Of a stretch of 64,000 bases of DNA, positions 1,552 through 33,805 are shown piece after piece (the first letter of the stretch is position 1; each line of letters starts with the position of its first letter). Source of the DNA: Candidatus Humicultor tengchongensis (GTDB lineage Bacteria; Sysuimicrobiota; Sysuimicrobiia; Sysuimicrobiales; Humicultoraceae); contig JAVKIA010000008.1 in assembly GCA_031459715.1 (NCBI GenBank), positions 5,186 to 69,185 on the forward strand, given 5' to 3'. The notes beneath the pieces are model-generated. The model worked only from the letters and a program-made list of their open reading frames with translations, searched no databases and was not told the origin of the DNA. The position numbers were made by a program, and so were the translations under genes.

Positions 1552-1603
1552 ATGCGCCGGCCGCCTCAGTCCCCGGGGGAAGCTCTGCCCCGCCAGGCCA
1601 TAA

Positions 1604-18158: not shown

Positions 18159-18310
18159 CCGGCACCCCTTCAATGCTACATCCACCGAAAATATACCCAC
18201 ACAGGCGACGGCGGCCCCAGGTGCCGCACGGACGGACCTGAGAATCACTTCTTGAGAGCTTGAAGTGGCCTGGCGAGGCCCATGCGTGCTAGCATAGCCG
18301 GGGTGGTCTG

Positions 18311-19154: not shown

Positions 19155-19315
19155 CCCCGGCCGACAGGCGGAAGGGCCGGACCGCAGGGCGGCTCACGGA
19201 GGCGTTCCGAGAAGGAGTAGAGGCACGCCTCCGCGAATCCGGGTGCGCAAGATGGGAGTGGCAGCGATCCGCCCCGTGAGCCCTTCCGTTGCCCCGCCCC
19301 TCCCACCGCCCGCAG

Positions 19316-20701
19316 ATGGCCCCTGAGACCGGCACTGACCCCCACGTGGTCGCCTGGCTGCTCACCGGCGGGGTGAAACGCCAGACCCTGGTGAAGCTTG
19401 CCGGCCGCCTCGGCCTGACATTCCCCGGCACCCGGTTGAGCACCCTGCCTCCCGATGTGATCGCCGACGCCCTGGTGGACCGGTGGGACGAGCCCGATGT
19501 CCGCCGCGCCGTTGTCGAGGTCCTGAACCGATCGCTGCCGGACGAGCGTGCCGGTGTGGCCCGTGCCGGCACCGACGAGGAGGCGCTGAAGAACCTCGTC
19601 CGGGAGGTCATCCACGCCTCGGACCCAGGCCGCCTGGACGGGCTGATCTGGGCCCTGGCGCAGAGCCCCCACGAGGTGCCCCGGGGGCTGGCCAGGGGCC
19701 TTATCCACTCCCTCGAGCACATGGCGCTGCACCAGGAGGTCTCCTCCGCCTACGCTCAGGTAGATGACGCGGAGTCCGCCCACGCCGAGGCCCTGACCGA
19801 CCTGCGGGTGACCCGCCAGGAGTTGCGCCGCTCTGAGCGCGAACGCGACCGGCTCGCCCGCTCAAACGCCGACCTGAGCCGCAGGCTGGTTCAGGCAACG
19901 GCAGAGCTGCGGGCGGCCGCCTCGGAGCGGAAGGCGCTGCAGCGTGAGCTGGCCAGGCTCCGCCGTCAGCTCGACGAGGCCCGGGAGGCCGTAGCCACCC
20001 GCCTGGCCGGGGCAGCAGAACTGGCCCGCCTGCAGGAGGGATTGGAGGCCGCGCGTCAGGCTGAGGCCACCTGGCGCGCCCGGGTGGACGAAGTCGACGC
20101 GGAGCGCCGGCGGCTGCTGGCGGATCTCGAGGAGATGAGCCGCTGGCTCCACCGGCTGCCTGGTCGGCGGGAGGACCGCGACGTGCGTGTGGCAGTATTC
20201 CTGGACGGCGAGAACCTGCTCTACAGCGCCCGGGCGGCCTTCGGCGAGCGTAGCCAGGTTTCCCTGAGCCGGATCCTGGCTGCGGCCACGCGCGACCGTA
20301 CCCTGACGGAGGCAGTGGCCTACGTGGGCCGCCTCCCGGTGGAGGGCGTCTGGGAGCCGCCGCAGCCGACCCTGGCCGACTACCAGCCGCCCTACCGCGT
20401 CCGCTTCCAGCGTCCCATCAAGCGCGAGGGCGCCACGTGGAGCGGCAACTGGGACGTGGGCATCGCCGTGGACATCCTCACCCGCGCGGGCGGGGTGGAT
20501 GCCATCGCACTGGCCAGCGGCGACGGCGACTTCCTGCCGCTGCTGGTCTACTGCAGGCGGCATGGGATCCGCACCGAGGTGCTGGCCTTTCCGGGATCCG
20601 CTTCCAGCGCCCTGGCCCTGGCCGCCGATCACTACCAGGAACTTGGCCCCGACGTCCTCTGGGCGGCCGAGGAGGTGTCGGGAAGCATTCCCACGAGGTA
20701 A
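19316..20701 (+). CDS. Coiled-coil protein with a C-terminal NYN/LabA-like nuclease domain
   Basis: VAVFLDGENLLYSA, SGNWDVGIAVD and ALASGDGDFLPLL carry the conserved NYN/DUF88 acidic residues. A coiled coil of about 120 aa lies upstream (ELRRSERERDRLARSNADLSRRL...). The start is ATG 19316, or TTG 19289. Confidence 0.7.
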   Translation: MAPETGTDPHVVAWLLTGGVKRQTLVKLAGRLGLTFPGTRLSTLPPDVIADALVDRWDEPDVRRAVVEVLNRSLPDERAGVARAGTDEEALKNLVREVIHASDPGRLDGLIWALAQSPHEVPRGLARGLIHSLEHMALHQEVSSAYAQVDDAESAHAEALTDLRVTRQELRRSERERDRLARSNADLSRRLVQATAELRAAASERKALQRELARLRRQLDEAREAVATRLAGAAELARLQEGLEAARQAEATWRARVDEVDAERRRLLADLEEMSRWLHRLPGRREDRDVRVAVFLDGENLLYSARAAFGERSQVSLSRILAAATRDRTLTEAVAYVGRLPVEGVWEPPQPTLADYQPPYRVRFQRPIKREGATWSGNWDVGIAVDILTRAGGVDAIALASGDGDFLPLLVYCRRHGIRTEVLAFPGSASSALALAADHYQELGPDVLWAAEEVSGSIPTR

Positions 20702-20788
20702 TGCTCCTTACCCGTCGCTCTCCCACACCAGGGGCATCTCCCACCTGGTGTCCGGCGGTGACCGACCAGGTTGCCAGCAGCGCTGAGG

Positions 20789-21736
20789 TCAGGGGCGGCC
20801 GGCCGGGGCGTCCAGCGTCGGCGGGGCCGGGACCTCCTCCAGGAGCGTCCGGATAATGCCGGCGGCGGGGCCCGTCTCCGGCCGGACGAGCATCCGGTGG
20901 GCGAGCACGGGGACCGCCAGCGCCTTGATGTCGTCGGGCAGCACGAATTCCCGCCCGGCGGCTGCCGCTCGCGCCTGCGCCACCCGCAGGAGGGCGATCC
21001 CCGCTCGCGGGCTGCACCCCAACACCACACCGGGCGCGGTGCGCGTGGCCGCGAGAATCTGCAGGGCGTAGCGGCGCACTGCCTCGCTGACGAACACCGC
21101 GCGCACCTCCCGTTGCATGGCCACCACTCCCTCGGGAGTGAGCACCGGCGCCAGATCGTCGATGGGATGGCGCGCCACGTGCGTGCCCAGCATCTGGAGC
21201 TCGTCCTCGAAGCCGGGGTAGCCCAGGGAGGTGGCCACGGTGAACCGGTCGAGCTGCCCCTCGGGCAGAGGGTAGATGCCGTGGTGCTCCGTGGGGTTGA
21301 GGGTGGCCAGCAGGAAGAAGGGCTGGGGGAGCGGATGAGTGCGGCCGTCCACGGTCACCTGGCCTTCGTCCAGCGGCTCGAGGAAGGCGGCCTGCGTGCG
21401 CGGGGTGGCCCGGTTCAGCTCGTCGGCCAGGACCACGTTGGCGAAGATGGGCCCGGGGACGAAGCGTAGCTCCAAGGCCCGCTGGTCGACTACGGAGCTG
21501 CCGGTGATGTCAGCGGGCAAGAGGTCGGGGGTGCACTGGATGCGGGAGACCTCTCCGCCGATGGAGCGGGCCAGGGCCCGCGCCAGCATCGTCTTGCCTA
21601 CCCCGGGGACGTCCTGCAGGAGGACATGCCCGCCGGCCAGCAGCGCCGTGACCACCAGCTCCACGGGCTCGCGCTTGCCGACGATGACGCGCTCGATGTT
21701 GTCGACGAGGCGCCGGGCGTCAGTGGCAACCCTCAT
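20789..21736 (-). CDS. moxR: MoxR-family AAA+ ATPase
   Basis: VLLQDVPGVGKTMLARALA (Walker A) and NVVLADELNRATPRTQAAFLEPLDEGQVTV (Walker B / sensor) are present. ATG at 21736 follows GAAGGAGA. Confidence 0.9.
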   Translation of the reverse strand: MRVATDARRLVDNIERVIVGKREPVELVVTALLAGGHVLLQDVPGVGKTMLARALARSIGGEVSRIQCTPDLLPADITGSSVVDQRALELRFVPGPIFANVVLADELNRATPRTQAAFLEPLDEGQVTVDGRTHPLPQPFFLLATLNPTEHHGIYPLPEGQLDRFTVATSLGYPGFEDELQMLGTHVARHPIDDLAPVLTPEGVVAMQREVRAVFVSEAVRRYALQILAATRTAPGVVLGCSPRAGIALLRVAQARAAAAGREFVLPDDIKALAVPVLAHRMLVRPETGPAAGIIRTLLEEVPAPPTLDAPAGRP

Positions 21737-21930
21737 GGGCGAGGTCTCCTTCACCACGTAGACTGGCGGGGCGGGCTGGCTCCGATCAGCCGGCTCTGCT
21801 CCGACCAGAAGCCGGCGGCCCCTGAATTCTATGCCCAACGGGCCGATCCTTTCTGTCGGGCCCAGGGCGTGGGGACGCCGGCGGTATCCCCACCGGACTC
21901 CCGCGGCTCGGATCGGGCGTCGTGTTATGC

Positions 21931-21988: not shown

Positions 21989-22396
21989 GTGCTGGAGGCG
22001 AGGGTTGGGCGGCTGGAATCGTCACTGCAGCGCCTGGCAGAGGCGCTGGAACAGCTGGCAGTCCGTATGGACCAGCTGGCAGCTCATGTCGATCGCCTCG
22101 CCCTGCGTGTCGACCGGATAGACCAGCGGCTTGCGTGGCTGAGCGGCGATGCCCTGGAGCGCCGGTATCGCGAGCGGGCTCACAGCTACTTCCAGGGCAT
22201 CCTCACCCGGATCCAGGTGGTGCCGGCTGACGCAGAGCGCGCAGCAAGACGGGCTGCGCTCCTTGAGCGCGCCATGGAGGTCCCCGTCATTCCGGCGGTG
22301 GCGGGAGAGCAGATCCTGCCAGATGCCGAAGCGGAGGCCAAAGCCGCACGTGTGTGGTGTGTCCTGGACGGGAGGGCCGAACCGCCGCCAGCCTAA
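21989..22396 (+). CDS. Hypothetical coiled-coil protein
   Basis: The ORF has the heptad-like repeat LEARVGRLESSLQRLAEALEQLAVRMDQLAAHVDRLALRVDRIDQRL. GAGGAGAGG precedes GTG 21989. No recognisable catalytic motif. Confidence 0.4.
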   Translation: MLEARVGRLESSLQRLAEALEQLAVRMDQLAAHVDRLALRVDRIDQRLAWLSGDALERRYRERAHSYFQGILTRIQVVPADAERAARRAALLERAMEVPVIPAVAGEQILPDAEAEAKAARVWCVLDGRAEPPPA

Positions 22397-22408
22397 GGCG
22401 ATTACCCG

Positions 22409-22906
22409 TCACCGGCGACGTCTCTTCCCCCAGGTCCAGACATTGTGCACCCAGTAGTTGAACACGCCTCCTGTGCCGATCGCCACAAGGTTAGCAAGAA
22501 ACAGCCGGGTGCCGAGAACCTCGACCAGTACCGTCAGGACAGCCAGGTAGATGAGGTTGCCTCCGCCGGTGGTCACGTAGTAGCGGACCAGACGCCCCGC
22601 AACCACACGCAGGTCGGACGAGCGCCGGTCCGACCACGTGAAGAAGTTGTTCAGGATGAAGTTCGTGAACGTGGACAGCGCCGCAGCCAGGACACCTGCG
22701 AGCGTGGTCTGGAGATACAGACCGGCCGTGCTCGCCCAGACAACCAGTGTGTTCACGCCGACCCCGGTAACGCCGACCAGGAGAAATCGCACGGGCCGCA
22801 CGTCCAACACTGTCAGCCAGCGAACGGTGGCCTGTACGGTGGGCACCAGTCTTCTGGGATAAGCCAAGGTCAGAGTCCCGTTGCCTTCCCGGCCGGCCGT
22901 CTGCAC
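22409..22906 (-). CDS. GtrA-family membrane protein (polyprenol-P-sugar handling)
   Basis: RFLLVGVTGVGVNTLVVW...FTNFILNNFFTW...FNYWVHNVWTW gives a four-TM GtrA pattern. Confidence 0.8.
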   Translation of the reverse strand: MQTAGREGNGTLTLAYPRRLVPTVQATVRWLTVLDVRPVRFLLVGVTGVGVNTLVVWASTAGLYLQTTLAGVLAAALSTFTNFILNNFFTWSDRRSSDLRVVAGRLVRYYVTTGGGNLIYLAVLTVLVEVLGTRLFLANLVAIGTGGVFNYWVHNVWTWGKRRRR

Positions 22907-22910
22907 GGAC

Positions 22911-24353
22911 TTACCGCTGCGAGGTGAGGACAGCAGACGCTGCGGCCTCCTTCCCCGACCTCTCCAGCGCCACTGCGATCCCTGCCAGGGTCCAGAAAAC
23001 GTTGGCCGGGCCGATGTGGCTCCAGGCGGACTGAAGCCACAGGAAGTATCCGGCCAGACCGGCCAAAATCCCTGCAGCCACGGCCCTGTGCTCGCCGCTG
23101 TGGCGGACGGCTGCGAGGAGCGCCTTGAGGACCACGGCCCAGATCCACAGGTACGCAGCCAGCCCGAGTAGACCCGTGCTGAAAGCTATGTGCAGGATCT
23201 CATTGTGAGCGGTGTCGATACCCGACAAGGCAAATCCGTAGATCTCAAAGTATTCCTTTGACCCGATGCCGGGCAGCCGTCCGGCGAGATTAGAGAACCC
23301 CCAGCCAAAGATCGGACGCTGGGCGATGAGGGGGAGGATATTCTTCCACACAAACAGCTTCATCCGCAACGACCCGTCCTGAGAGCTGACCCCTCCCCTC
23401 GCCCGGCCCATCAGTTCCTCTCCGGGTCCCGTCAGGGTGAGCAAGGCAGTCACCGCCGCCAGGACACCAGCCACCAGCACCAGGCGCTTCCACGGACGTG
23501 GAAGGCGTGGGGGAACCACCAAGAGCATCCCTACGGAGAGGACCAACCCGGCAAAGGCAGCGCGGCTCGCCGAAGCAAGCAGTGCTGCGTAGGTCCCGGC
23601 GAGAGCGGTAAGCAGAATATAGCGGGCGCACCGGCGATCTGAAGCCAGTACGAAGGCGATGATGACCGGCAGAACAAGCAGTGTGTAGCCCCCCAGAAAA
23701 ATAGGGTTCCCCAGCGTGCCAAAGCTGCGCCAGCCGTGGTAAGGAAGATCCGCGGTTGGCAGAGGGAGAATACCGAAAAACACGCCGGGGTCAACGGCGC
23801 GAAATCCCAGCAGGCGTAAAGGGTCGGCGCCATAGAACTGTCCCACCGCCACGGCCGCGATCACAATCGCGCCCGCCAGACCGCCCCTGAGCACAAGCTT
23901 TGCACTGTCGGGTCTCAGCCGCGCTGCGGCCCAACCCATCAGCACATAGACGACGTAGATCAGGAGCCCGTCGCCGCGGCTGCGGGAGGGGACGAAACTG
24001 AGGAAGGACCTGGGCGACAGCACGGTCGCCAGAGAGGCTGCAAGGATGAAGACGATGAGGGGCAGGTCTAGCCGGGACCGAGAGGACAAAGCCCCTCCCC
24101 GCCAGAGGAAGTACAGCCCCAGTACCAGGACGAGCCCGGAAAGGAGCGTAAGGTCTGCCTTCATGTCATTGGTGGGCATGAGGGGGACCAGAGCTGAAAA
24201 CGCCACGATGCCCACCAGGACGGCCACCCTTCCCAGCGACTGAACGTGCGTATGCGTTTGGCTCTTCCAGCCTTTGGAAACTGCCACGGGAGACTGGCCA
24301 GCCGGCGTGCTCGCAGGCAGCATGCTCTCCACAGTGACTTGCGGTTCAGCCAT
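22911..24353 (-). CDS. O-antigen ligase-like (Wzy_C domain) membrane protein
   Basis: Ten or more TM helices and a large loop with ...SGIDTAHNEILHIAFSTGLLGLAAYLWIW, as in Wzy_C/WaaL/TfpO-type proteins. ATG at 24353 overlaps the upstream stop (ATGGCTGA). Confidence 0.7.
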   Translation of the reverse strand: MAEPQVTVESMLPASTPAGQSPVAVSKGWKSQTHTHVQSLGRVAVLVGIVAFSALVPLMPTNDMKADLTLLSGLVLVLGLYFLWRGGALSSRSRLDLPLIVFILAASLATVLSPRSFLSFVPSRSRGDGLLIYVVYVLMGWAAARLRPDSAKLVLRGGLAGAIVIAAVAVGQFYGADPLRLLGFRAVDPGVFFGILPLPTADLPYHGWRSFGTLGNPIFLGGYTLLVLPVIIAFVLASDRRCARYILLTALAGTYAALLASASRAAFAGLVLSVGMLLVVPPRLPRPWKRLVLVAGVLAAVTALLTLTGPGEELMGRARGGVSSQDGSLRMKLFVWKNILPLIAQRPIFGWGFSNLAGRLPGIGSKEYFEIYGFALSGIDTAHNEILHIAFSTGLLGLAAYLWIWAVVLKALLAAVRHSGEHRAVAAGILAGLAGYFLWLQSAWSHIGPANVFWTLAGIAVALERSGKEAAASAVLTSQR

Positions 24354-25107
24354 GCCGGTCCCCCTGCGCGGAAGCAGGCGCAACCCCGGGCCTGACAAGT
24401 AACCGCAGGTACTCGACAATAGTCCGGGCCAGCCGAATCTTGCTTCTCCCCTGCTTGCGGTCGTAGCGCAGCCGCAGAGGAACCTCTGCGATCTTTGGAT
24501 GGAACACGCTCAACTTCACCAGCAGTTCTGGCATCACCGCGAACCCCCGTGTCGCAATGAGGCTGCTACCATAACGCTCGACTGCTGCCTGGAGGAGGCG
24601 GGCGCGGTACATCCGGAAGCCGGAGGAGTAGTCCCTAACGCCGCGCAGACCAAACCGAACGGCCAGGAGGATACGGGCACCGCGGCTGAGGATGCGGCGC
24701 AGTACAGGCACACCCAACTGGTCGGCGCCCGCCACATAGCGTGAGGCAACCACAACGTCCGCCCCGCGCTCGAGTGCTGCCACCATGCCGGGAATGAGTT
24801 CAGGAGGCTGAGTGTTGTCCGCGTCCATGGTGACGATGGCATCATCCTGCCCCGCCAAAGGGAGGACCCAACGAAAGGCTGCGAGCAGGGCAGCCGGCAG
24901 TCCATGATTGTGGTCGTGCCCGAGAACCCGGATGGGAAGACGTGCGGAGAGGGCAGCCGCCACGCTCCTCGTTCCGTCAGTGCTGCCGTCATCCACCATG
25001 ACAACCCGGTACGGCTGGCCCAGGCCATTCATGGTCCGGGCGATCCCTTCCCCTAATGCCGGGAGATTTCTGGCCTCGTTGTACGCAGGGAGGACAATCC
25101 AGATCAC
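24346..25107 (-). CDS. GT2 glycosyltransferase, polyprenol-phosphate-sugar synthase-like (GtrB/Dpm1 type)
   Basis: IWIVLPAYNEARNL...YRVVMVDDGSTDGT...NHGLPAAL...VTMDADNTQ are GT2 motifs. Confidence 0.85.
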   Translation of the reverse strand: MIWIVLPAYNEARNLPALGEGIARTMNGLGQPYRVVMVDDGSTDGTRSVAAALSARLPIRVLGHDHNHGLPAALLAAFRWVLPLAGQDDAIVTMDADNTQPPELIPGMVAALERGADVVVASRYVAGADQLGVPVLRRILSRGARILLAVRFGLRGVRDYSSGFRMYRARLLQAAVERYGSSLIATRGFAVMPELLVKLSVFHPKIAEVPLRLRYDRKQGRSKIRLARTIVEYLRLLVRPGVAPASAQGDRHG

Positions 25108-26651
25108 GGCGCAGCGGAGGCCGTCCTAACTCTGGATTTCAGGAGAAACAGGTATACGCGGTGGAAATCCCGCCCCCACGTCTCGATGAAATAGGGACCG
25201 AGTATCTCGTTGAGCCGGCTCCGCGCCGGATAGCCCAGCGGCAGCGTGGCCACAATCCAGAGCCGGGGGTGGCGCCGGGCCATGGCAGCAATCTTCTCGG
25301 CGCCCAGCACGGCTTGAGCGCCTGTGACATCCGTCTTGAGAACTTCGCCAGGATCCATGGCGAGTGATTCGTTCTTGTAGGAAAGATAGTAGCGCATCAT
25401 CTCCCTGCCGATCGCGGGCACGAACAGAAGTGCATCATCCGGCTTGATGCTTGCCTCAAGGTAGCGGGAGGCTGCACGCCAGTCGCTGTATCCGGGTACT
25501 CGGTAATACTCCGCAAGCACCGGGACAGAGAACGACACGGGCAACAGCAGCAGACCCACCACTGCCAGCCAGCGATAGGACGAAAATCCCGCCGCGAGGT
25601 AGTAGATCCCGGCAGCCAGGGCAATGGCAAATACCGGCTCCAGGAACGAGAAGTACCGAGGATAGAAGATGTTCCACTTGATTGAGAAGGCGAAAGCCAG
25701 GATGACTGGAACTCCTCCCCACGAGGCGAGGAACCACGCGGAGGATGTCGCAGCTAAGATGGACAACCCATAGGCGGCCAGCAGGAGAAACGGTAACAGC
25801 AAAGGAGCGAGGGTGACGAGATCGGCCCTTCCAACCGTGAAGTAGGTCCCCATGCCGAACAGGCGGCCGCCAAAAGCCAGAAAACCCAGCAGATCTGTGA
25901 TGGTGTGATAGGTAAGCGGAGGTCGGAACTGGGGCCAGCCGCGACCGGAAGCGACCTGCTGCGCCACCATGGGCACCCACGGCAGGTAGAGCACGCTAAT
26001 AGCGAGTAGACACGTCGCCCAGGCAATCATCTTTCGCCGAGAGGTGTGCGTAGCGGTCAGGTACACTGCGTGCGCGGGAAGCATGAAGAAGGCAAGGTAA
26101 TGCGTGTAGAGGCTCAGTACCGTTGCGAGACCGTAGAGGGCAAGCCACCCGCGGCGATCCCCATCGAGCCATTGCAGGAGGGCCCAGGCGCCCAACCAGA
26201 TCCACACACCCAGCCACGGATACATGCGCACTTCCTGCGTCGCTTGGATGTGGAAAGGTGACGTGGCGACGATCAATGCCGCTATCAGGCCCACTGCCGG
26301 TGAGGCGAGGCGAGCCGCCACCAGGTAGGTAAGAAAGACTGTAGTGAGACCTCCAAGTATGGAGAGCAATCGAAGCGCGACCTCACTGCTGCCGACAGCC
26401 GCCATCCACAGACGGAGCGTCGCGTAGTAAAGCGGAGGATGGGTGTCGTGTTGGCCAATCAGCCGCGTGATGCCTGAAAGCGTGTGCCGGGCTACGAAAA
26501 AGCTGTAGAGTTCGTCAAAGGACAGGCTCTTCGCTTCAAGGGCATAGAGGCGGAGAACCAGCGCAAGCAAGAGAACACCGGCCAGGGCGCTGACTTGAGA
26601 CTTTAGCCACAGGGCGGGAGCCGCACGCGTTGCAGGAATGATAGGAATCAC
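25104..26651 (-). CDS. GT-C family 39/83-like membrane glycosyltransferase (PMT_2/ArnT type)
   Basis: KSLSFDELYSFFVARH...HDTHPPLYYATLRLWM has the loop-1 DE motif, followed by many TM helices. It is a paralog of the next gene. Confidence 0.8.
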   Translation of the reverse strand: MIPIIPATRAAPALWLKSQVSALAGVLLLALVLRLYALEAKSLSFDELYSFFVARHTLSGITRLIGQHDTHPPLYYATLRLWMAAVGSSEVALRLLSILGGLTTVFLTYLVAARLASPAVGLIAALIVATSPFHIQATQEVRMYPWLGVWIWLGAWALLQWLDGDRRGWLALYGLATVLSLYTHYLAFFMLPAHAVYLTATHTSRRKMIAWATCLLAISVLYLPWVPMVAQQVASGRGWPQFRPPLTYHTITDLLGFLAFGGRLFGMGTYFTVGRADLVTLAPLLLPFLLLAAYGLSILAATSSAWFLASWGGVPVILAFAFSIKWNIFYPRYFSFLEPVFAIALAAGIYYLAAGFSSYRWLAVVGLLLLPVSFSVPVLAEYYRVPGYSDWRAASRYLEASIKPDDALLFVPAIGREMMRYYLSYKNESLAMDPGEVLKTDVTGAQAVLGAEKIAAMARRHPRLWIVATLPLGYPARSRLNEILGPYFIETWGRDFHRVYLFLLKSRVRTASAAP

Positions 26652-28348
26652 CGGGTCGCCGGAGTGAAGCGCTGAGAATCCCAGCGGAACACGTAAACGT
26701 AGCCAAAGCCGACGCCGGCAGCCTCACGAAAACTGCCGGGCACCTGCTGGAGCAGCTCATGGCGCCCCTCTACCCCAATCGGCGCCGCGGCGACGATCCA
26801 CAAGCGAGGGTGGCGTAGGGCGAGCGCGGCAATCGCTCTGCTATCAGCCTCCACGCGGAAACCCACTACTTGCCTCCCCTTGAGGATTTCGCGCGGGTTA
26901 ATCGAGACCGTAGCCTGATCTCCATGGAAATAGTACTCGAATGGCAGGCGGGTGAACGCGGGCATGAACAGCAGTACGTCCTCCCGCGAAGCATGTTGGC
27001 GAACGTATGCGGCCGCTGCACGCCAGTCATGAGTCGGCGGGGCAGTGAAGTAGGCGAAAAGAGCAGGAATAGTATACGCCCCTAGAAACGCGAGCAGCCC
27101 GGCTGCTGCAGCTACGGGCCTGATGTGCCGCACCGTATGGACCGTCTGCAGAATCCCCGCAGCGACCAGCACAGAGAAGAAAGGCGTCAAGAAGGAGAAG
27201 TAGCGCTTCTGGAAGAAATTCCACTGCAGTGAGATGAGCGCCACTATTAGGAAGGGAACGAGCCAGCACGCCAGAATCAGCAGGCGTCCTCGTCTTTCTA
27301 ACCGACTCACCCCTGTCAGGACCAGCAAGATAAACGGGATAAGTGCTAACAGGGGGTAGGCTGGCTGGTCCAGACAGACCTTGGGCGGCGACGGGTCAGT
27401 GAAGCGGAGTGGACTCAGAACGCACGTTTCTGGGATTACTCCTGAATAGAAACCCTTGCGGAAGTACGTTGCCGTCCCGAACAGGCCCCCTCCGAAGCTC
27501 CACATCGCAAGTACATCAACGAGGTCGCTGAGGCGCAACGGGGGCCGAATCGACGGCCACGACCGGACCGTGGTCACCTGTGGAGGCAAACTCGGAAGCA
27601 GTGGCAGATAGGCAATCACGATGACGAGGACGCATGCAAGCCACCACTTGAGCGCAGGACCATGCCGGAGTGTCGCAACCAGGTAGACCGCATGCGCCAG
27701 CAGGACCAGCAAGGCGAAGTGATGCGTGTAGACGGCCAGGACCATCAGAGCCGCATAGGCGACCCAGTAGCGCCGCCTGCCCTCTTCTAAGCCAAGCAGG
27801 AGCGCATAGGTAGCACCCAGGGTGAAGACCCCAAGGAACGAGTACATCCGTGCTTCTTGAGATGCGGCGATGAGGTACGGCGAGGAAGCCACAATCCCTG
27901 CGGCCAGCACCCCCACGGTTGCTCCGCTGAGCCGGCGGGCCAGGAGAAAAGTGAGCGGGATCAGGACCGCCCCGGCGAGCGCAGAAGGAATGCGAATCGC
28001 AGCCTCAGTTTGGCCTGCAATCGCCATCCAGACGTGGAGAAGCATGTAATAGAAGGGTGGGTGGGTATCGTAGACACGGAGTAGCCGGGGCACATCCAAG
28101 AGGGGCTGCCGGGCGATCCAAAAACTGTATGCCTCGTCAAACCATAAGCCCTTGCTAAGGCCGTATCCCCTGAGGGCAACACCGACCGCGGCAGCCGTTG
28201 TTACCAGAAGGGGAACGATGATAACGCGAAGATCGAGGCGCAGCTTTCTCGCTGCAACCACTACATCGGATCGCGTCTCAACGAGGTGAGCGTCCATCTG
28301 TGAACACGATAACGCGGAGGGCGGGATTTGTCCCACCCTCCGCGCCAA
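26648..28348 (-). CDS. GT-C family 39/83-like membrane glycosyltransferase (PMT_2/ArnT type), immediately downstream of the pilin gene
   Basis: KGLWFDEAYSFWIARQ...YDTHPPFYYMLLHVWM. It begins 16 nt after the pilin stop. The start codon is uncertain (TTG 28348 or ATG 28297). Confidence 0.8.
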   Translation of the reverse strand: MARRVGQIPPSALSCSQMDAHLVETRSDVVVAARKLRLDLRVIIVPLLVTTAAAVGVALRGYGLSKGLWFDEAYSFWIARQPLLDVPRLLRVYDTHPPFYYMLLHVWMAIAGQTEAAIRIPSALAGAVLIPLTFLLARRLSGATVGVLAAGIVASSPYLIAASQEARMYSFLGVFTLGATYALLLGLEEGRRRYWVAYAALMVLAVYTHHFALLVLLAHAVYLVATLRHGPALKWWLACVLVIVIAYLPLLPSLPPQVTTVRSWPSIRPPLRLSDLVDVLAMWSFGGGLFGTATYFRKGFYSGVIPETCVLSPLRFTDPSPPKVCLDQPAYPLLALIPFILLVLTGVSRLERRGRLLILACWLVPFLIVALISLQWNFFQKRYFSFLTPFFSVLVAAGILQTVHTVRHIRPVAAAAGLLAFLGAYTIPALFAYFTAPPTHDWRAAAAYVRQHASREDVLLFMPAFTRLPFEYYFHGDQATVSINPREILKGRQVVGFRVEADSRAIAALALRHPRLWIVAAAPIGVEGRHELLQQVPGSFREAAGVGFGYVYVFRWDSQRFTPATR

Positions 28349-28364
28349 TCACGGCTCGAATCGA

Positions 28365-28787
28365 CTAGAAACTGCAGCCCTGGTTGGAGTCGCCGTTGGT
28401 GCTAAGGACGACCGAACACGAGTCGGAGCTACCCACGGGGAATCCGCTGGACTGCCCAACAGCCTGCCACGTAATAGACGAAGCGCTACCTCCGCCAGCC
28501 GACACCGTCGGCGTCTGCCAGGCTGACCCGGCGGGCATCTGCAGGGCGATGTCGGTGATGTCGTCAGGGAAGACATTGTGCTCCTGGTAGTAGGCCCAGG
28601 AGAGCGTCTTCGCCTCCTGGAGGATGTTGTCGATCTCCGCCTTGTAGGCGCGCTTGCGGGCGCCCAGGTAGCGCGGCACGGCGAGCGCAAGCAGGATACC
28701 GAGAATGGCCAGCACGACCACCAGCTCGATGAGGGTGAAGCCCCCCTCGGCGGTGCGCCGCTTTTGGTCGACGAAGAACCGAAGCAA
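28365..28787 (-). CDS. pilA: Type IV major pilin candidate (copy 1)
   Basis: TTG start lies 8 nt after GGGAGGT. The leader is MLRFFVDQKRRTAEGG|FTLIELVVVLAILGILLALAVPRYLGARKRAYK. The Ser/Thr/Gly-rich C-terminus has a Cys pair (DSCSVVLSTNGDSNQGCSF). Confidence 0.9.
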   Translation of the reverse strand: MLRFFVDQKRRTAEGGFTLIELVVVLAILGILLALAVPRYLGARKRAYKAEIDNILQEAKTLSWAYYQEHNVFPDDITDIALQMPAGSAWQTPTVSAGGGSASSITWQAVGQSSGFPVGSSDSCSVVLSTNGDSNQGCSF

Positions 28788-29014
28788 GATACCTACCTCC
28801 CTTCAGTGCTTATTGGCGGTTTGTCATAGCTCAAGTCGGTGAAGGCCCCGGCACAACGCTCCCCTCAACACACCCACCTCCCCTTCCGGCCGATCCTTGG
28901 GGTTCACCACCCTCCTATGCCCGGATCGGCATCGACCTAGACATTTTTTGGGAGGGGGCTCCGGCGAGCCGACTCCTGAATACCCGGGGCGGAGGCTCTG
29001 GCTCGCGAGAAAGC

Positions 29015-29473
29015 CTAGAAGTTGCAGCCCTGGGACGCCGACCCGTCGGTGCTCAGCGTCACGGAGCACAGGTCCGCGGGTCCCACGAGGGCCCCGCCGG
29101 AAAGGCCGCTGGTGGTCCAGGTAATGAAGGTATCGCTGCCCCCTCCGGCGGCCACGATGGGCGTGTTCCAGACCGCTCCGGCGGGCATCTGGAACGGGAT
29201 ATCTGCCGGTGCGGTGGGGAAGAACTCGTGCTCGTGGTAGTAAGCCCAGGAGAGCGTCTTCAGCTCCTGCAGCAGGTGGTCAGCCTCGCTCTTGTAGGCT
29301 CGCTTGCGGGCGCCCAGGTAGCGCGGCACAGCCAGCGCCAGCAGGATCCCCAGCACAGCCAGCACCACCACCAGCTCGATGAGGGTGAAGCCCCCCTGGG
29401 CGGTGCGCCGTCTTTGGTTGTGGAAGCCCCCTGGGGTGGTGCGCTGTCTTCGGTTGAGGAAGAACGTAAACAC
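29015..29473 (-). CDS. pilA: Type IV pilin paralog (copy 2) with a duplicated leader segment
   Basis: ...NRRQRTTPGGFHNQRRRTAQGG|FTLIELVVVLAVLGILLALAVPRYLGARKRAYK. The C-terminus is ...DLCSVTLSTDGSASQGCNF. The GTG start lies 4 nt after the pilC stop. Confidence 0.85.
   Translation of the reverse strand: MFTFFLNRRQRTTPGGFHNQRRRTAQGGFTLIELVVVLAVLGILLALAVPRYLGARKRAYKSEADHLLQELKTLSWAYYHEHEFFPTAPADIPFQMPAGAVWNTPIVAAGGGSDTFITWTTSGLSGGALVGPADLCSVTLSTDGSASQGCNF
29387..29458. repeat. Tandem 36-nt duplication (about 30/36 identical) inside the pilin copy-2 leader coding region
   Basis: gaagcccccctgggcggtgcgccgtctttggttgtg (29387-29422) compared with gaagccccctggggtggtgcgctgtcttcggttgag (29423-29458). 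Confidence 0.85.
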
Positions 29474-29477
29474 GTCC

Positions 29478-30710
29478 CTACTTGATCCCCCCGCCCGTGG
29501 CCAGGGAGAAGATGGGCAGGTACAGCGAGATGACCATGGCGCCCACCACCACGCCCATGAAGATGATCAGCATCGGCTCGAGCAGCGAGGTCAGGCTCTG
29601 CACCGTGGTCTCCACCTCTACGTCGTAGAAGTCGGCCACCTTCTCCAGCATCTGCTCCAGTTGCCCCGTCTCCTCCCCCACCTTGGCCATCTGCACCACC
29701 ATGGGCGGGAAGACCCCGGAGAACTGCAGCGGGATGGCGATGGTCTGCCCCTCCCGGATGCTGGCGCGCACCGCGTCCACCGCCTCGCCGATCACCGTGT
29801 TGTCGATGGCCTTGGCCACCACCTCCAGGGACTGCATGATGGGCACCCCGCTGGCAATGAGCGTCCCCAGGGTGCGGGAGAAGCGGGCCACCACGATCTT
29901 GCGGTTGAGGTCGCCCAGGGCCGGCAGGCGCAGCTTCAGCCGGTCGTAGCGGGCCCGCCCCTGGGGGGTGCGCAGGTAGCGGCGCAGGCCCCAGACCAGC
30001 AGGATGATGCCCCCAAAGACCAGGTACCAGAAGCGGCGGATGACCACGCTCGTGGCCATGGCGATCTGCGTGGGCAGCGGCAGGCTCCCCTCCCCGCCCA
30101 GCTCCCGGAAGAGGTTCTGGAACTGGGGGAGAATGACCACGGTCATGAACATCAGCCCGCCCAGTGCCGCCACGGTGAGCAGGGCCGGGTAGACCATGGC
30201 CGCCTTCACCTTCTGCCGCAGCGCCTGCTCCTTCTCCAGGAAGGTGGCGATGCGGTTGAGGACCTCGTCCAGCACCCCTCCGGTTTCCCCGGCCTTGACC
30301 ATGTTCACGTAGAGGCTACTGAAGACCTTAGGGTGACGGGCCAGGGCCTCGGAGAGGGGGCGGCCGGCCTCCACGTCCAGCCGCACCTGTGCTGCTACCT
30401 CGCGCAGCTTCTTGTTGGAGGTCTGCTGTTCCAGGATGGAGAGCACCCGCACCAGAGACAGGCCGGCGTTGACCATGGTGGAGAACTGGCGGGAGAAGAT
30501 GGCCAGGTCCTTGAGGCCCACGCCGAACATCCCCTGCAGCAGCTCGCCCACGTCGCGGCGCTCCTGGGCCCGTTCCAGGTTGGTGATGAAGAAGCCCATC
30601 TCCCGCAGGCGGTCCACCACCACCGCATCGTTGTCCGCCTCGATGGTCCCGGCGATCACCCGCCCTGTGGGGTCCTTGGCGCTGTAGCGGAATACGGCCA
30701 TTGCCCTCAC
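29478..30710 (-). CDS. pilC: Type IV pilus platform protein PilC (GspF family)
   Basis: Two GspF repeats (LSRQFSTMVNAGLSLVRVLSIL...; FSRTLGTLIASGVPIMQSLEVV...) and three TM segments. Confidence 0.92.
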   Translation of the reverse strand: MRAMAVFRYSAKDPTGRVIAGTIEADNDAVVVDRLREMGFFITNLERAQERRDVGELLQGMFGVGLKDLAIFSRQFSTMVNAGLSLVRVLSILEQQTSNKKLREVAAQVRLDVEAGRPLSEALARHPKVFSSLYVNMVKAGETGGVLDEVLNRIATFLEKEQALRQKVKAAMVYPALLTVAALGGLMFMTVVILPQFQNLFRELGGEGSLPLPTQIAMATSVVIRRFWYLVFGGIILLVWGLRRYLRTPQGRARYDRLKLRLPALGDLNRKIVVARFSRTLGTLIASGVPIMQSLEVVAKAIDNTVIGEAVDAVRASIREGQTIAIPLQFSGVFPPMVVQMAKVGEETGQLEQMLEKVADFYDVEVETTVQSLTSLLEPMLIIFMGVVVGAMVISLYLPIFSLATGGGIK

Positions 30711-30716
30711 CTGCCC

Positions 30717-31904
30717 TTATGATCGCACCCGCAGGCGCACCGCCGGCTCCGGCTCCTCGCCGCCCGCCTCGCGGATCATCTTGCGCAGCTCTTCCGGGTG
30801 GATGGCCCGGCCGATGGCGTCCTCGTAGGTGATCAGCTTCTTCAGGTAAAGGTCGCGCAGCGACTGGTCCATGGTCTGCATGCCGTACTGCACCCCGGTC
30901 TGGATGGCTGTCTCGATCTGGTGGGTCTTGGCCTCGCGGATGAGGTTGCGTATGGCCGGGGTGGCCAGCATCACCTCCACCGCGGGGACCCGGCCGATCT
31001 CGTCCAGGGAAGGCCAGCCCCCCCGCGATGCGCTTCCCAGGCGGGATCGGGTGACCCGCCCCTCGGCCCTGGCGGCGTTGTAGCGGGCGTTGGCCAGCAA
31101 CTGCTGGGAGATCACCGCCTCCACCACGCTGCTGAACTGAATTCGGATCTGCTGCTGCTGGTGGGGCGGGAAGACGTCGATGATCCGGTCCACAGACTGG
31201 CTGGCGTTGGCCGTGTGCAGCGTGGCGAAGACCAGGTGCCCGGTCTCGGCGATGGTCAGAGCGGCGGCGATGGTCTCCAGGTCACGCATCTCCCCGATGA
31301 GCACCACGTTGGGGTCCTCCCGCAGCACCGCCCGCAGGGCGTTGGGAAAGGACTGGGTGTCGAAGCCCAGCTCCCGCTGGTTGACGATGGACTTCTTGTG
31401 GGTGTGCAGGTACTCGATGGGGTCCTCGATGGTGACGATGTGCACGCTGCGCTCGCTGTTGATGAAGTCGATCATGGAGGCCAGCGTGGTGGACTTGCCA
31501 TGCCCGGTGGGGCCGGTGACCAGCACCAGGCCCCGGGGCTTGCGGGTCAGTTCTTTGAGGATGGGGGGCAGGTTCAGCTGCTCCACGGTGGGGATGCTCA
31601 TGGGGATGACCCGGGCGGCGATGCCCACCGCCCCCCGTTGCCGGTAGATGTTCACCCGGAAGCGCCCCAGCCCGGGGACCCCGTAGGAGAGGTCCAGCTC
31701 CCAGAACTTCTCAAACTTCTGCTTCTGGAAGGTGTTGAGCATGCTGTAGCCAAGCTGGAAGGTGTCCTCAGGGGTCAGCACCTCGTACTGCTCCATGGGC
31801 TGCAGCTTCCCCCACACCCGCATGGTGGGCTTGATGCCCGCGGTGAGGTGCAGGTCCGAGCCCTGGTTCTCCACAACCTCGCGCAGCAGGTCGTCGATGT
31901 GCAT
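30717..31904 (-). CDS. pilT: Twitching-motility retraction ATPase PilT (with an insertion of about 30 aa)
   Basis: GSDLHLTAG, GPTGHGKST (Walker A), VVLIGEMRDLET, AETGHLVFATLHT and ATPAIRNLIRE are present. Confidence 0.9.
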   Translation of the reverse strand: MHIDDLLREVVENQGSDLHLTAGIKPTMRVWGKLQPMEQYEVLTPEDTFQLGYSMLNTFQKQKFEKFWELDLSYGVPGLGRFRVNIYRQRGAVGIAARVIPMSIPTVEQLNLPPILKELTRKPRGLVLVTGPTGHGKSTTLASMIDFINSERSVHIVTIEDPIEYLHTHKKSIVNQRELGFDTQSFPNALRAVLREDPNVVLIGEMRDLETIAAALTIAETGHLVFATLHTANASQSVDRIIDVFPPHQQQQIRIQFSSVVEAVISQQLLANARYNAARAEGRVTRSRLGSASRGGWPSLDEIGRVPAVEVMLATPAIRNLIREAKTHQIETAIQTGVQYGMQTMDQSLRDLYLKKLITYEDAIGRAIHPEELRKMIREAGGEEPEPAVRLRVRS

Positions 31905-31954: not shown

Positions 31955-33805
31955 TTACTCCTCTACGAACACCACGCGGAGGACCTCCTCCAGCGAGGTG
32001 GTACCGTTCAGGACCTTGGCCAGCCCGTCGGTCTGCAGGGTGCGCATCCCCGCGGCGATGGCCGCTTCCTTGATCCGCCCGCTGGGCGCCCGGTCGACGA
32101 TCAGCCCCTTGATGGTATCGTCTACGGGCATGATCTCAAACAGCCCCGTCCGCCCCCTGTAGCCGATGTTGCTGCAGTACTCGCAGCCAGTGGCCCGGTA
32201 GAAAGTGGGCACCGGAGCTAGGTCGGCCAGCCCCACCCGCTTCAGCATCTCCGGGGTGGGGACATAAGACTGCTTGCAGTGCTGGCAGAGCACCCGCACC
32301 AGGCGCTGGGCGATCACCCCGATCACCGAGGAGGAGACCAGGAAGGGCTCGATCTCCATGTCCACCAGGCGGGTCACCGCCCCGGCAGCGTCGTTGGTGT
32401 GCAGGGTGGAAAGCACCAGGTGCCCGGTGAGGGAGGCGTGGATGGCGATCCTGGCCGTCTCCTCGTCGCGGATCTCCCCCACCATGATGATGTCCGGGTC
32501 CTGCCGCAGGAAGGCGCGCAGCCCGGTGGCAAAGGTCAGGCCGGCCTTGGGGTTGATCTGCACCTGGGCGATCCCCGGGAGCTGGTACTCCACCGGGTCC
32601 TCGATGGTGGTGATGTTGACCTCCACCTTGTTCAGCCGGTTGAGGATGGCGTACAGGGTGGTGGTCTTGCCGCTTCCGGTGGGGCCGGTGAGCAGGATGA
32701 TCCCGTGGGGCCGGGTGATGATGCGCTCGAAGCGCTGGTGGTCCTCCGGCAGCAGGCCCAGCTTCTCGATGCCCACAAAGGCCCCCTGTTTGTCCAGGAT
32801 GCGCATGACCACCTTCTCCCCCCAGACGGTGGGGATGGTGGAAACGCGCAGGTCGATGTCCCGGTTGTCCACCCGCATCTCGATGCGACCATCCTGGGGG
32901 ACGCGGCGCTCGGCGATGTTCATCCCGGCCATGATCTTGATGCGGGAGACCAGGGCCGCCTGCACGTGTTTGGGGGGCGTCATCACCGAGTACAGGGCCC
33001 CGTCGATGCGGTAGCGGATGCGCACCCGCTGCTCCTGCGGTTCCACATGGATGTCGCTGGCCCCCTGACGGATGGCCTGGACGATAACCTGGTTGGCCAG
33101 GCGGACGATGGGCGCGTCCTCGGCCACGGCGCGCAACCGCTCCGTGGCCACCTCCTCCTCGTAGGTCTCCGCGGGGCGGATCTCCGCCAGCGTCTGGTCC
33201 ACCCCCACGGGGTACTGGCTGAGGGCGCGCTGGAAGGCGTCGGGGGTTATCACCACCGGACGGATCTCCAGGCCGGTGAGCTTGCGCAGGTCGTCCAGGG
33301 CCACCACGTCCAGCGGGTCCTCCATACCCACCACCAGGCTGCTGTCGTCGGCGCTGATGGGGATGACGTGGTGACGGCGGGCGATATGCTCGGGGACGCG
33401 GAGCAGTACGTCCTCTTCCAGCAGGACGTCCGCCAGGTTGACGAAGTCGATGCCCAGTTGCTTGGCGATGGCCCGGGCGATGTCCTCCTGAGAGGCCAGG
33501 CCCATGCTCATGATCACCCGGCCCAGGCGCTCGCCTGTTTCCTTCTGCTGCTGCAGGGCGCGCTCCAGCTGGGCCTCGGAGAGGAGGCCGGCTTCCACCA
33601 GGATCCGCCCCATGGGCACGCGTCTGCGCATCGGGGCAACTCGCCGGGGATGACCCCGCAAAGCCTCAGTATAGCGACCGGGGCCGCCACTGTCCCGGGA
33701 CGGCGGAGCCGCGGGAGCGGCGTCTCCCCCCGCGACGTCCACCTCCACCCTGCGGGAGGTGGCCTGCCCGTGCGGGTCACGCACGGTGATGTTCAGCTCA
33801 GCCAT
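31955..33805 (-). CDS. pilB: Type IV pilus extension ATPase PilB/GspE (copy 1) with an MshEN-type N-terminal domain
   Basis: GPTGSGKTTT, IMVGEIRDEETA, LTGHLVLSTLHTN and the tetra-Cys motif CQHCK...GCEYC are present. ATG at 33805 follows GGCGGAGGG. Confidence 0.92.
   Translation of the reverse strand: MAELNITVRDPHGQATSRRVEVDVAGGDAAPAAPPSRDSGGPGRYTEALRGHPRRVAPMRRRVPMGRILVEAGLLSEAQLERALQQQKETGERLGRVIMSMGLASQEDIARAIAKQLGIDFVNLADVLLEEDVLLRVPEHIARRHHVIPISADDSSLVVGMEDPLDVVALDDLRKLTGLEIRPVVITPDAFQRALSQYPVGVDQTLAEIRPAETYEEEVATERLRAVAEDAPIVRLANQVIVQAIRQGASDIHVEPQEQRVRIRYRIDGALYSVMTPPKHVQAALVSRIKIMAGMNIAERRVPQDGRIEMRVDNRDIDLRVSTIPTVWGEKVVMRILDKQGAFVGIEKLGLLPEDHQRFERIITRPHGIILLTGPTGSGKTTTLYAILNRLNKVEVNITTIEDPVEYQLPGIAQVQINPKAGLTFATGLRAFLRQDPDIIMVGEIRDEETARIAIHASLTGHLVLSTLHTNDAAGAVTRLVDMEIEPFLVSSSVIGVIAQRLVRVLCQHCKQSYVPTPEMLKRVGLADLAPVPTFYRATGCEYCSNIGYRGRTGLFEIMPVDDTIKGLIVDRAPSGRIKEAAIAAGMRTLQTDGLAKVLNGTTSLEEVLRVVFVEE

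Follow-up and report, generated by a model that had tools for sequence, protein, structure and literature searches.

Candidate pilin glycosylation genes attached to a type IV pilus operon of the phylum Sysuimicrobiota

What is the acceptor of a glycosylation system, when its genes follow upon a pilin gene? This question is raised by a stretch of 64,000 nucleotides from Candidatus Humicultor tengchongensis (assembly GCA_031459715.1, contig JAVKIA010000008.1, positions 5,186 to 69,185), here called the window, to which all coordinates refer unless a locus of a relative is named. Two prepilin genes of a type IV pilus operon are followed there, on the same strand, by five genes, here called the cassette, which encode two glycosyltransferases of the GT-C class (GT-C#1 and GT-C#2), a family 2 glycosyltransferase (GT2), a membrane protein with a Wzy_C domain and a GtrA-like membrane protein. 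The original prediction for this DNA was that these genes make up a system dedicated to the glycosylation of the pilin. Our analysis puts the probability at about 0.6 that this is so, i.e., that in this CSP1-3 (Sysuimicrobiota) bacterium the five genes are an appendage of the type IV pilus operon, dedicated to O-glycosylation with the pilin as substrate. A survey of gene neighbourhoods is strongly in favour of the prediction, while its details on spacing, on the pair of GT2 and GtrA, and on the kinship with PMT, TfpW and TfpO have had to be changed.

The cassette and its linkage to pilin genes

The order of the genes on the minus strand is pilB-pilT-pilC-prepilin 2-prepilin 1-GT-C#1-GT-C#2-GT2-Wzy_C-GtrA, and all of those that the prediction had named are present on that strand, in the places first assigned to them, as open reading frames (ORFs) with Pfam matches. 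The pilus string begins with the extension ATPase gene pilB (31955..33805, 616 amino acids, aa), which was identified from its ORF and by phmmer mapping to orthologues with MshEN and T2SSE domains in three loci of related genomes (L001, L004 and L009). It is followed by the retraction ATPase gene pilT (30717..31904, 395 aa; orthologues with T2SSE) and by pilC for the platform protein (29478..30710, 410 aa; orthologues with T2SSF_N and T2SSF). The presence of pilT identifies the pilus as type IVa-like and retractile. Among the proteins scanned in the 64-kb window there was no secretin. Then come prepilin copy 2 (29015..29473; N_methyl match with E 5.3e-8, and family alignment) and prepilin copy 1 (28365..28787; N_methyl 1e-7), the latter being the proposed glycan acceptor.

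The genes of the cassette are tightly packed. There are four-nucleotide (nt) GTGA overlaps between GT-C#1 and GT-C#2 and between GT-C#2 and GT2, and an 8-nt overlap (ATGGCTGA) between GT2 and Wzy_C when the Wzy_C gene starts at ATG 24353, while the GtrA gene begins after a gap of 4 nt. The claim that most of the genes overlap by 4-8 nt is borne out in this way, and the five glycosylation genes are all intact ORFs that are translationally coupled.

The cassette also differs from its surroundings in base composition. In the window, with about 70% G+C, the interval 22000..28400 has a G+C content of 0.61-0.64 and a G+C content at third codon positions (GC3) of 0.69-0.78, to be compared with 0.69-0.72 and 0.85-0.95 in the surroundings; for pilB, pilT and pilC the GC3 of 0.91-0.95 is well above that of the cassette. 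The low GC3 is compatible with weak expression, with an exchange of the cassette or with both. In the relatives there is also a dip, about half as deep, and recent horizontal transfer is for this reason no more than a possible cause. Could the cassette be a mere passenger, decaying or recently acquired and without current function? Its G+C and GC3 below those of the flanks would agree with this, as would the Wzy_C gene of L001, which is split into two gene calls (213 + 251 aa). Yet the five ORFs are intact and coupled, orthologues with 40-80% identity retain the catalytic residues, and the smaller GC3 dip in relatives points to low expression more than to a foreign origin, which makes a functionless passenger very improbable.

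The main evidence for a connection between cassette and pilus comes from other genomes. GT-C contexts were collected by exact look-up and from 185,579 species genomes that were scanned, and were mapped with phmmer together with the prepilin motif. The closest relatives are found in metagenome-assembled genomes labelled Armatimonadota, CSP1-3, 'Candidatus Geohabitans tengchongensis' (58% identity) and 'Ca. Fervidifonticultor' (37-40%). These are all names used within CSP1-3, a candidate phylum that has been described under the name Sysuimicrobiota and of which chemoautotrophic enrichments exist (PMC11604079); pili and glycosylation are not mentioned in that paper. When the relatives in the genome scan are at least about 30% identical to GT-C#1, a prepilin gene adjoins the GT-C gene in 13 of 18 loci; the other five lie on short or cut contigs, and all relatives at this level of identity that have enough flanking sequence adjoin a prepilin gene. 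When identity is below about 32%, as for relatives in Anaerolineae, Spirochaetia, Clostridia and Pseudomonas, prepilin adjacency is found in none of 61 loci, and the contexts are of polysaccharide type. The difference corresponds to p = 3e-11 in Fisher's test, a value that overstates the independence of the loci, since most of the positive ones share ancestry.

The adjacency is accompanied by large variation in gene order. The order pilin-GTC-GTC-GT2-WzyC-GtrA occurs in L001, L014 and L018. In L004 and L005 two pilins are followed by three GT-Cs, GT2 and then YfhO; in L008 (2038..11581 of that locus) two pilins are followed by six PMT_2-type GT-Cs in tandem; and in L021 (9205..13692; Ca. Fervidifonticultor sextus) the genes alternate as pilin-GTC-pilin-GTC. 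GT-Cs precede a pilin-pilin-GTC-GT2 string in L025, L026 and L029, a GT-C is followed by a pilin in L019 and L024, and L020 has pilC, Wzy_C on the opposite strand, pilin and GT-C. With one to six GT-C copies per pilin-linked locus, and because the arrangements are so varied, the survey shows that the GT-C genes have stayed beside pilin genes while the loci were repeatedly rearranged and lost or duplicated genes. A one-to-one pairing of pilins and GT-Cs, suggested by L021, was considered and rejected, as the ratios include 1:1, 1:2, 2:2, 2:3, 2:4 and 2:6.

A linkage of its own is found for the Wzy_C protein. A search of 5.8 billion proteins for its homologues gave a small clade of about 15 clusters with at least 41% identity, beyond which there is a sharp drop. 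Members adjoin a pilin gene in the window and in L001, L014, L018, L020, L092 and L093. In the last two, Wzy_C ends a different pilus operon, with the order HTH-pilB-pilC-pilin-minor pilins-Wzy_C and with neither pilT nor GT-C, and in L094 it comes directly after pilB, with a prepilin peptidase gene and a PMT_2 gene nearby. From its presence in pilus operons that lack GT-C genes follows that the Wzy_C clade is pilus-linked in its own right. The survey of neighbourhood conservation, which had been proposed as a check along with the prediction, has in this way given a positive answer both for the GT-C clade and, independently, for the Wzy_C clade. Because the cassette stays beside pilin genes throughout the phylum, in spite of changes in gene order, it most likely decorates the pilus with sugar.

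The enzymes and what they may do

The GT2 protein (24346..25107, minus strand, 253 aa; Glycos_transf_2, 2.5e-25) has no membrane domain of its own. It aligns to residues 26-245 of the dolichol-phosphate-mannose synthase (DPMS) of Pyrococcus furiosus, 5MLZ, with E 2.3e-30, and its lesser matches are ArnC (1e-15) and sll0501, a GtrB-like protein (1.7e-9). The GtrA-like protein, a four-helix membrane protein (22409..22906, minus strand, 165 aa; PF04138, 3.8e-20), aligns to residues 246-372 (E 5.4e-6), which belong to the membrane domain of this same protein chain. Since the two proteins match two halves of one DPMS chain, the pair looks like a split polyprenyl-phosphate-hexose synthase with GT2 as the catalytic subunit. 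The GtrA-like protein is probably the membrane half of this synthase and/or a flippase for lipid-linked sugar; from its alignment to the membrane domain follows that it may be a synthase anchor rather than, or besides, a flippase. The best NCBIfam matches of GT2 are ArnC, PgfS, PpgS and a haloarchaeal Dol-P-hexose transferase, all under the family cut-offs (for the PgfS model, 6e-14 and 52 bits against a cut-off of 500), and the sequence alone does not name the sugar. The pair had originally been described as a GtrB/Dpm1-like GT2 with GtrA, after the three-component periplasmic glycosylation system: the families GT2 and PF04138 stand, but a split DPMS of the Pyrococcus type fits better than GtrB plus a flippase.

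The two GT-C proteins, GT-C#1 (26648..28297, minus strand, 549 aa; longest ORF to TTG 28348) and its paralogue GT-C#2 (25104..26651, minus strand, 515 aa), are 39% identical over 491 aa. GT-C#1 has the motif FDEAYSF in its first outer loop and GT-C#2 the motif FDELYSF, and D54 and E55 of this motif are invariant in the 14 clade members that were aligned. PMT_2 is the sole Pfam match of both (1.1e-17 for GT-C#1 and 5.1e-14 for GT-C#2), and neither PF02366 nor PMT_4TMC is found. The NCBIfam Pmt model scores 26 bits against a cut-off of 800, which places the GT-Cs outside the Pmt (GT39) family. The expected pair of paralogous GT-C enzymes with an Asp-Glu motif of PMT/ArnT type in loop 1 is in other words present, but its members are PMT_2 proteins and not true PMTs.

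Neither the profile of the GT-C clade nor the Wzy_C protein matched any PDB sequence even at E <= 1, so fold searches were needed. The AlphaFold2 (AF2) model of GT-C#1, with a predicted local distance difference test score (pLDDT) of 80 and a predicted template modelling score of 0.83, has the GT-C_A fold. Its top Foldseek matches are STT3 of oligosaccharyltransferase (OST), ArnT (5F15/5EZM) and AglB, with E about 1e-8 and template modelling scores (TM) of about 0.55, followed by PglB, DPY19 and ALG9/12, and then by Aft/Emb and Pmt. As OST, ArnT, AglB, ALG9/12 and DPY19 are scored alike, enzymes that modify proteins are not separated from those that modify lipids or glycans, and the match of the modelled fold confirms the GT-C class, not the acceptor. 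The C-terminal outer domain (residues ~420-549) is a small alpha/beta unit in the model; no TPR domain was found in the GT-Cs by the Pfam scan, or in the AF2 model of GT-C#1.

GT-C#1 also has a 30-residue insertion in an outer loop (alignment columns 301-330), with two cysteines, YSGVIPETCVLSPLRFTDPSPPKVCLDQPAYP. It lies within residues 269-314 of the 549-aa form (27356..27493, minus strand), a 46-residue stretch with AF2 pLDDT below 50, and it is common only to the closest relatives (P0003 and P0005), while GT-C#2 and the rest of the clade lack it.

The Wzy_C protein (22911..24353, minus strand, 480 aa from ATG 24353; longest ORF to 24419; Wzy_C, 1.7e-18) has an AF2 model with pLDDT 84. The only significant PDB fold match of this model is WaaL, 7TPG_B (E 1.2e-6, TM 0.54/0.62, 19% identity). 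All 15 members of its clade match PF04932, and their invariant residues are R264, R317, R346, H383, N384, G394 and G397. These include the string HN-x9-G-xx-G, which we take to resemble the ligase motif. The PglL_A motif (PF15864) is matched by none of the 15, even at E <= 1. PilO/TfpO is likewise without PglL_A (PMC3643930). The genomic setting of WaaL, an LPS core/O-antigen locus, does not recur here, as no lipopolysaccharide (LPS) genes are found among the scanned window proteins. The Wzy_C protein is from these data a candidate pilin O-oligosaccharyltransferase. A protein like Wzy_C or an O-antigen ligase had been predicted, and the domain and the WaaL fold agree with this, while specific features of TfpO or PglL are missing: there is no PglL_A, and the pilins have no C-terminal serine.

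It could also be that the Wzy_C protein is the pilin O-oligosaccharyltransferase and that the GT-Cs, GT2 and GtrA only decorate the lipid- or pilin-linked glycan, in a diversification that resembles seroconversion and is possibly directed against pilus-specific phages. The acceptor of the GT-C enzyme is indeed a glycan in the classical three-component systems (PMC11127046), the number of GT-C genes differs as widely among the relatives as would be expected for diversifying decoration, the GC3 of the cassette (0.69-0.78) is below that of its flanks (0.91-0.95), and pilin glycosylation in P. aeruginosa is reported to block pilus phages (10.1101/150227). But many pilin-linked GT-C loci (L004-L009, L016, L021, L026 and L029) have no Wzy_C gene nearby, and from this follows that their GT-Cs cannot depend on a neighbouring O-oligosaccharyltransferase. 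The top folds of GT-C#1 moreover include the protein-modifying STT3, AglB, PglB, DPY19 and Pmt, a comparison that does not discriminate. A purely decorative role of the GT-Cs therefore appears improbable.

If instead the whole cassette serves the pilin, the following sequence of events may be envisaged. At the cytoplasmic face of the membrane, GT2 and the GtrA-like protein, as a split enzyme of DPMS type, would take a hexose from a nucleotide sugar and attach it to polyprenyl phosphate, and the lipid-linked sugar would move to the outer face, possibly assisted by GtrA. There the GT-C paralogues could use their outer-loop Asp-Glu to transfer the sugar to serine or threonine of the pilin while this is anchored in the membrane, before its assembly, or to a glycan already bound to the pilin, each paralogue perhaps serving a different site or linkage. 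The WaaL-fold Wzy_C protein may, in the manner of TfpO and PglL, transfer en bloc to the pilin a glycan that is linked to undecaprenyl diphosphate (Und-PP) and made elsewhere in the genome. When one synthase serves one to six GT-Cs, this scheme predicts that hexose is added as a homo-oligomer or at several sites, to an extent that increases with the number of GT-C genes. The scheme may be extended, as a tentative idea with the odds against it, to a modular pilin 'glycan island' found throughout the phylum, in which the split DPMS-type synthase would feed one to six GT-Cs that build hexose chains on serine and threonine, and to which some lineages would add the en-bloc glycan of the WaaL-fold enzyme.

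Pilins, spacer and alternative readings

Are the pilins themselves suitable acceptors? The two copies are 68% identical, and both have a mature form of 124 aa with a cysteine pair at Cys108-Cys122; for pilin 2 the mature form is counted from the site ...AQGG|FTLIELV. Serine and threonine make up 0.19-0.22 of the globular part of the pilins, to be compared with 0.08-0.15 in the remaining proteins of the locus, and in pilin 1, where the value is 22%, they are mostly in residues 61-120. The C-termini are ...GCSF and ...GCNF, phenylalanine being the last residue in this subfamily. C-terminal halves rich in serine, threonine and glycine had been proposed for both pilins; the peptide quoted in support is there, but the richness in serine and threonine, at 0.19-0.22, is only modest.

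The spacer that separates the stop of pilin 1 from the start of GT-C#1 has a length that depends on the start codon. The gap of 16 nt that was first reported holds only if GT-C#1 starts at TTG 28348. An exact-sequence look-up of the longest ORF (566 aa) gave no match, and the issue of the start codon came to light because the recorded product is the 549-aa form. The identical database entry and the close homologues of GT-C#1 have this length, with a start equivalent to ATG 28297. TTG 28348 is an unlikely start for this reason, the gap of 16 nt falls with it, and a start at ATG 28297 leaves 67 nt after the pilin stop.

This spacer contains a G+C-rich hairpin with a 16-bp stem (28311..28346, minus strand), which in folding calculations has a free energy (dG) of -44.4 kcal/mol and z = -5.1, with none of 200 shuffled sequences folding equally well. 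Hairpins of other sequence are found at the same position, after the last pilin gene, in L001, L004, L008, L014 and L016 (z from -3.8 to -8), and there is none between the two pilin genes (z = -0.04). A simple terminator scan did not call the hairpin, because it has no T-run; the other matches of the scan lie inside genes. By analogy, the hairpin is probably a leaky, attenuator-like terminator or an element that stabilises the mRNA, and would set a high ratio of pilin to enzyme: the bulk of the transcripts would give pilin, and read-through would supply the enzymes at a low level. In S. mutans, the cnm gene has been shown to be separated from pgfS by a leaky terminator (PMC5856776).

In environmental data the locus is present in hot-spring metagenomes at 99-100% of the sampled sequence words, while RNA runs contain 5-7% of the pilin words, and these only from the N-terminus that is conserved among relatives. 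A side observation concerns 28705..29600, where contigs from two runs of the same hot-spring study, X1 (DNA) and X13 (RNA), join the 3' end of pilC to the pilin N-terminus via a different sequence, with 727 nt skipped, 283 other letters and about 91% identity. Because the contigs diverge between pilC and pilin, with a DNA depth of 86 for the related strain and 16 for this organism, it is seen that a more abundant related strain has a different pilin allele there, which is transcribed.

Several observations weigh against the pilin as the dedicated acceptor. The enrichment of serine and threonine in the pilins is moderate, about twofold, and no convincing acceptor sequon or conserved column of serine or threonine is found among 21 aligned pilins, beyond a general richness in serine, threonine and glycine. 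In the one metatranscriptome from the same study, the depth of this organism over the cassette is zero, and only contigs of the related strain are found, at pilC and at the pilin N-terminus. If the hairpin were a full terminator, it could uncouple pilin from GT-C#1. The available structures do not separate a Wzy polymerase from a ligase, and the cassette has neither an initiating phosphoglycosyltransferase (PGT) nor a Wzx-type flippase for an Und-PP-glycan, so that the donor of Wzy_C is not encoded there. Most of the pilin-linked loci come from one candidate phylum, and since the flanks (DnaB-like, MerR and MoxR-DUF58-TgpA genes) are conserved as well, the linkage could in part be inherited synteny. 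Finally, distant relatives of the GT-Cs sit in polysaccharide loci, and within CSP1-3 YfhO takes the place of Wzy_C.

Taken together, points of this kind suggest another explanation, namely that the cassette is a general system for protein O-glycosylation or for an envelope glycan (of an S-layer, a lipoglycan or a secondary wall polymer) and has the pilus operon only as a neighbour. In the manner of Gtr enzymes, its GT-Cs would add hexose branches to a polymer that Wzy_C polymerises or ligates, and the pilin would be at most one substrate of many. The polysaccharide clusters with distant GT-C relatives contain Wzy_C, Wzx-like, PGT and LytR genes but no pilin (L011/L012; L031-L091), YfhO is a teichoic-acid glycosyltransferase, and L009 has a polysaccharide cluster (GT4, WecG and Bac_transf) within 10 kb downstream; the hairpin between pilin and enzymes and the partial inertia that conserved flanks may lend to the adjacency agree with such a system too. 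What speaks for the dedicated cassette is that prepilin adjacency survives at least five gene orders and copy numbers from one to six, that pilin and GT-C genes alternate in L021, and that the Wzy_C clade occurs independently inside pilus operons without polysaccharide genes. The cassette furthermore lacks a PGT, a Wzx and a chain-length regulator, and the window already has a separate, general Pmt system. With these observations on the other side of the balance, a general system is unlikely, and dedicated pilin glycosylation remains the preferred reading.

Relation to known systems and to the surrounding genes

How does the cassette compare with systems in which the acceptor is established? 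In group IV P. aeruginosa the GT-C gene tfpW comes right after pilA, and TfpW needs a GtrA-like protein (PsPA7_6247) and a polyprenyl-phosphate-linked sugar, with which several serine and threonine residues of the pilin are O-glycosylated by D-arabinofuranose (D-Araf) (10.1101/2020.04.19.049825). TfpW itself is marked by a YX6PFX7P motif in its fourth periplasmic loop. The position is similar here, where GT-C#1 follows 67 nt after pilin 1, and the same is true of relatives; alike are also the acidic motif in the first periplasmic loop, which is essential in TfpW, the GtrA-like protein and the predicted polyprenyl-monophosphate donor. TfpW is set apart by its domain make-up, with a large periplasmic C-terminal TPR domain where the GT-Cs, of PMT_2 type, have a small alpha/beta domain. 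It is present in single copy and in another phylum, while there are two GT-Cs here and one to six in relatives, and its donor is made by the arabinofuranose pathway of phosphoribosyl pyrophosphate (PRPP), DprE1 and DprE2, in contrast to the DPMS-like GT2 for a hexose. Donor synthesis is represented in the cassette by the DPMS-like GT2 and GtrA alone, and no match to DprE-type or PRPP-transferase families was found among the 37 window proteins that were scanned against Pfam.

In group I P. aeruginosa (TfpO/PilO) and in Neisseria and Acinetobacter (PglL), a Wzy_C membrane protein with a WaaL-like fold lies beside its pilin target, as in the cassette; 21 of 31 PglL homologues adjoin the pilin target (PMC3643930). 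As with TfpO and PglL, genes for glycan synthesis are missing from the cassette, and another pathway would have to supply the donor. PglL has the PglL_A motif, unlike the 15 members of the Wzy_C clade in question, and the target of TfpO is a C-terminal serine of the pilin, where the present pilins end in phenylalanine. Here, furthermore, the Wzy_C gene is the fourth after the pilin and not the first, and it occurs together with GT-Cs. A GT-C arm and an O-antigen-ligase-like arm are in accordance with the original picture of TfpW-like and TfpO-like classes behind one pilin, but the domain make-up of TfpW and the PglL_A motif are not found.

The Pgf system of S. mutans (cnm-pgfS-pgfM1-pgfE-pgfM2), in which the GT2 enzyme PgfS and two PMT_2-family proteins modify Cnm (PMC5856776), has a similar layout: a substrate gene, a leaky terminator, a GT2 and two paralogous PMT_2-family membrane proteins. 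Its substrate is an LPXTG adhesin, and it has an epimerase but neither GtrA nor Wzy_C, whereas the cassette has a pilin, GtrA and Wzy_C. In the three-component systems (GtrA/GtrB/Gtr*, ArnC/ArnEF/ArnT and CsbB/GtcA/YfhO) a GT2 synthase, a small GtrA-family protein and a GT-C are encoded in one place (PMC11127046), and all three components, including the acidic loop motif of the GT-C, are found in the cassette. GtrB, however, has C-terminal membrane helices that the present GT2 lacks, so that GT2 together with GtrA reproduces the single-chain DPMS of Pyrococcus; in addition, the acceptor would here be a protein, and several GT-C paralogues share one synthase.

There is finally a likeness to actinobacterial and eukaryotic O-mannosylation (Ppm1/Dpm1 with Pmt, GT39), where a DPMS-like synthase feeds a GT-C with Asp-Glu in loop 1, acting on serine and threonine of exported proteins. 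The GT-Cs next to the pilin lack the PMT core, and the real Pmt of the organism is encoded at 13530..14735 (minus strand). This is a genuine Pmt-type GT-C with PF02366 and PMT_4TMC domains and a match to yeast Pmt1 (6P25) at 4e-12, and it is paired with a second DPMS/ArnC-like GT2 (12784..13551, minus strand). The pair (12784..14735) lies between a TgpA-like transglutaminase gene and minor-pilin-like genes, and its sequence suggests a general protein O-mannosylation system besides the cassette; given such a separate pair in the window, the pilin-adjacent set would be an extra, specialised system.

Because it lacks the TPR domain and the arabinofuranose pathway of TfpW, the core of Pmt, the PglL_A motif of PglL and the C-terminal pilin serine of TfpO, the cassette would be a functional analogue of TfpW, TfpO/PglL and Pgf, and is a member of none of these systems. 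Searches of the literature on pilins with GT39 enzymes, or on pilus glycosylation in Armatimonadota or CSP1-3, gave no description of such an arrangement. The combination was also new to the author of the prediction; its logic, however, has close precedents in TfpW with its GtrA-like protein and in cnm-pgf of S. mutans.

Other genes of the window are also arranged around the pilus locus. Further on along the same strand come MoxR-DUF58-TgpA, the Pmt and GT2 pair, minor-pilin-like genes and pilM-pilN-pilO. The trio of MoxR AAA+, DUF58 and TgpA-like transglutaminase genes after the cassette (14737..21838, minus strand) is found likewise in Ca. Geohabitans (L001, 16093..21544), and the TgpA-like protein has a weak N_methyl (prepilin-like) match in L001 and L002. 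A link of the trio to the pilus is possible. An insert on the plus strand (18311..20701), between MoxR (20789..21838) and DUF58 (17001..18248), contains a nucleotidyltransferase-RNase toxin-antitoxin pair of MNT/HepT type (18311..18730 and 18654..19154) and an NYN-domain protein of 470 aa (19289..20701). It is a lineage-specific insertion, since MoxR and DUF58 are contiguous in L001 and L002. The pilM-pilN-pilO genes (649..4001, minus strand) are followed by a GGDEF-domain gene instead of pilP/pilQ. Upstream of pilB, another ATPase that resembles PilB and has a TPR region at its N-terminus (36551..38839, plus strand) is encoded divergently from a DnaB-like helicase gene (34775..36322, minus strand), an arrangement kept in L004, L009 and L016. 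In L001, L004 and L009 the DnaB-like gene is separated from pilB by a MerR gene, to which L004 and L009 add a DUF6812 gene.

What does the cassette mean for the biology of the pilus? Most of what is known of pilin glycosylation comes from Proteobacteria, in which a single accessory enzyme (TfpO, TfpW or PglL) is encoded beside pilA. The same genomic logic is found here in a deep-branching, uncultured and largely thermophilic phylum, and it is built from different parts: arrays of PMT_2-type GT-Cs, a split homologue of the archaeal and eukaryote-like DPMS, and a WaaL-fold enzyme. If the more tentative picture of a modular glycan island were true, two mechanistically different routes of O-glycosylation would converge on one pilin, it would be the first case of pilin glycosylation by GT-C enzymes outside Proteobacteria, and the size of the array would set the structure of the glycan, with consequences, for example, for heat stability or for escape from pilus phages. 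If dedicated pilin glycosylation is confirmed, protein O-glycosylation mediated by GT-C enzymes would extend to a new class of substrate and a new phylum, and the loci with one to six paralogues would provide a natural series for the evolution of acceptor specificity in GT-C enzymes. It would further provide thermostable enzymes for glyco-engineering, and a simple rule for the reading of metagenomes, by which a GT-C or Wzy_C gene beside a prepilin gene predicts that the pilus is glycosylated.

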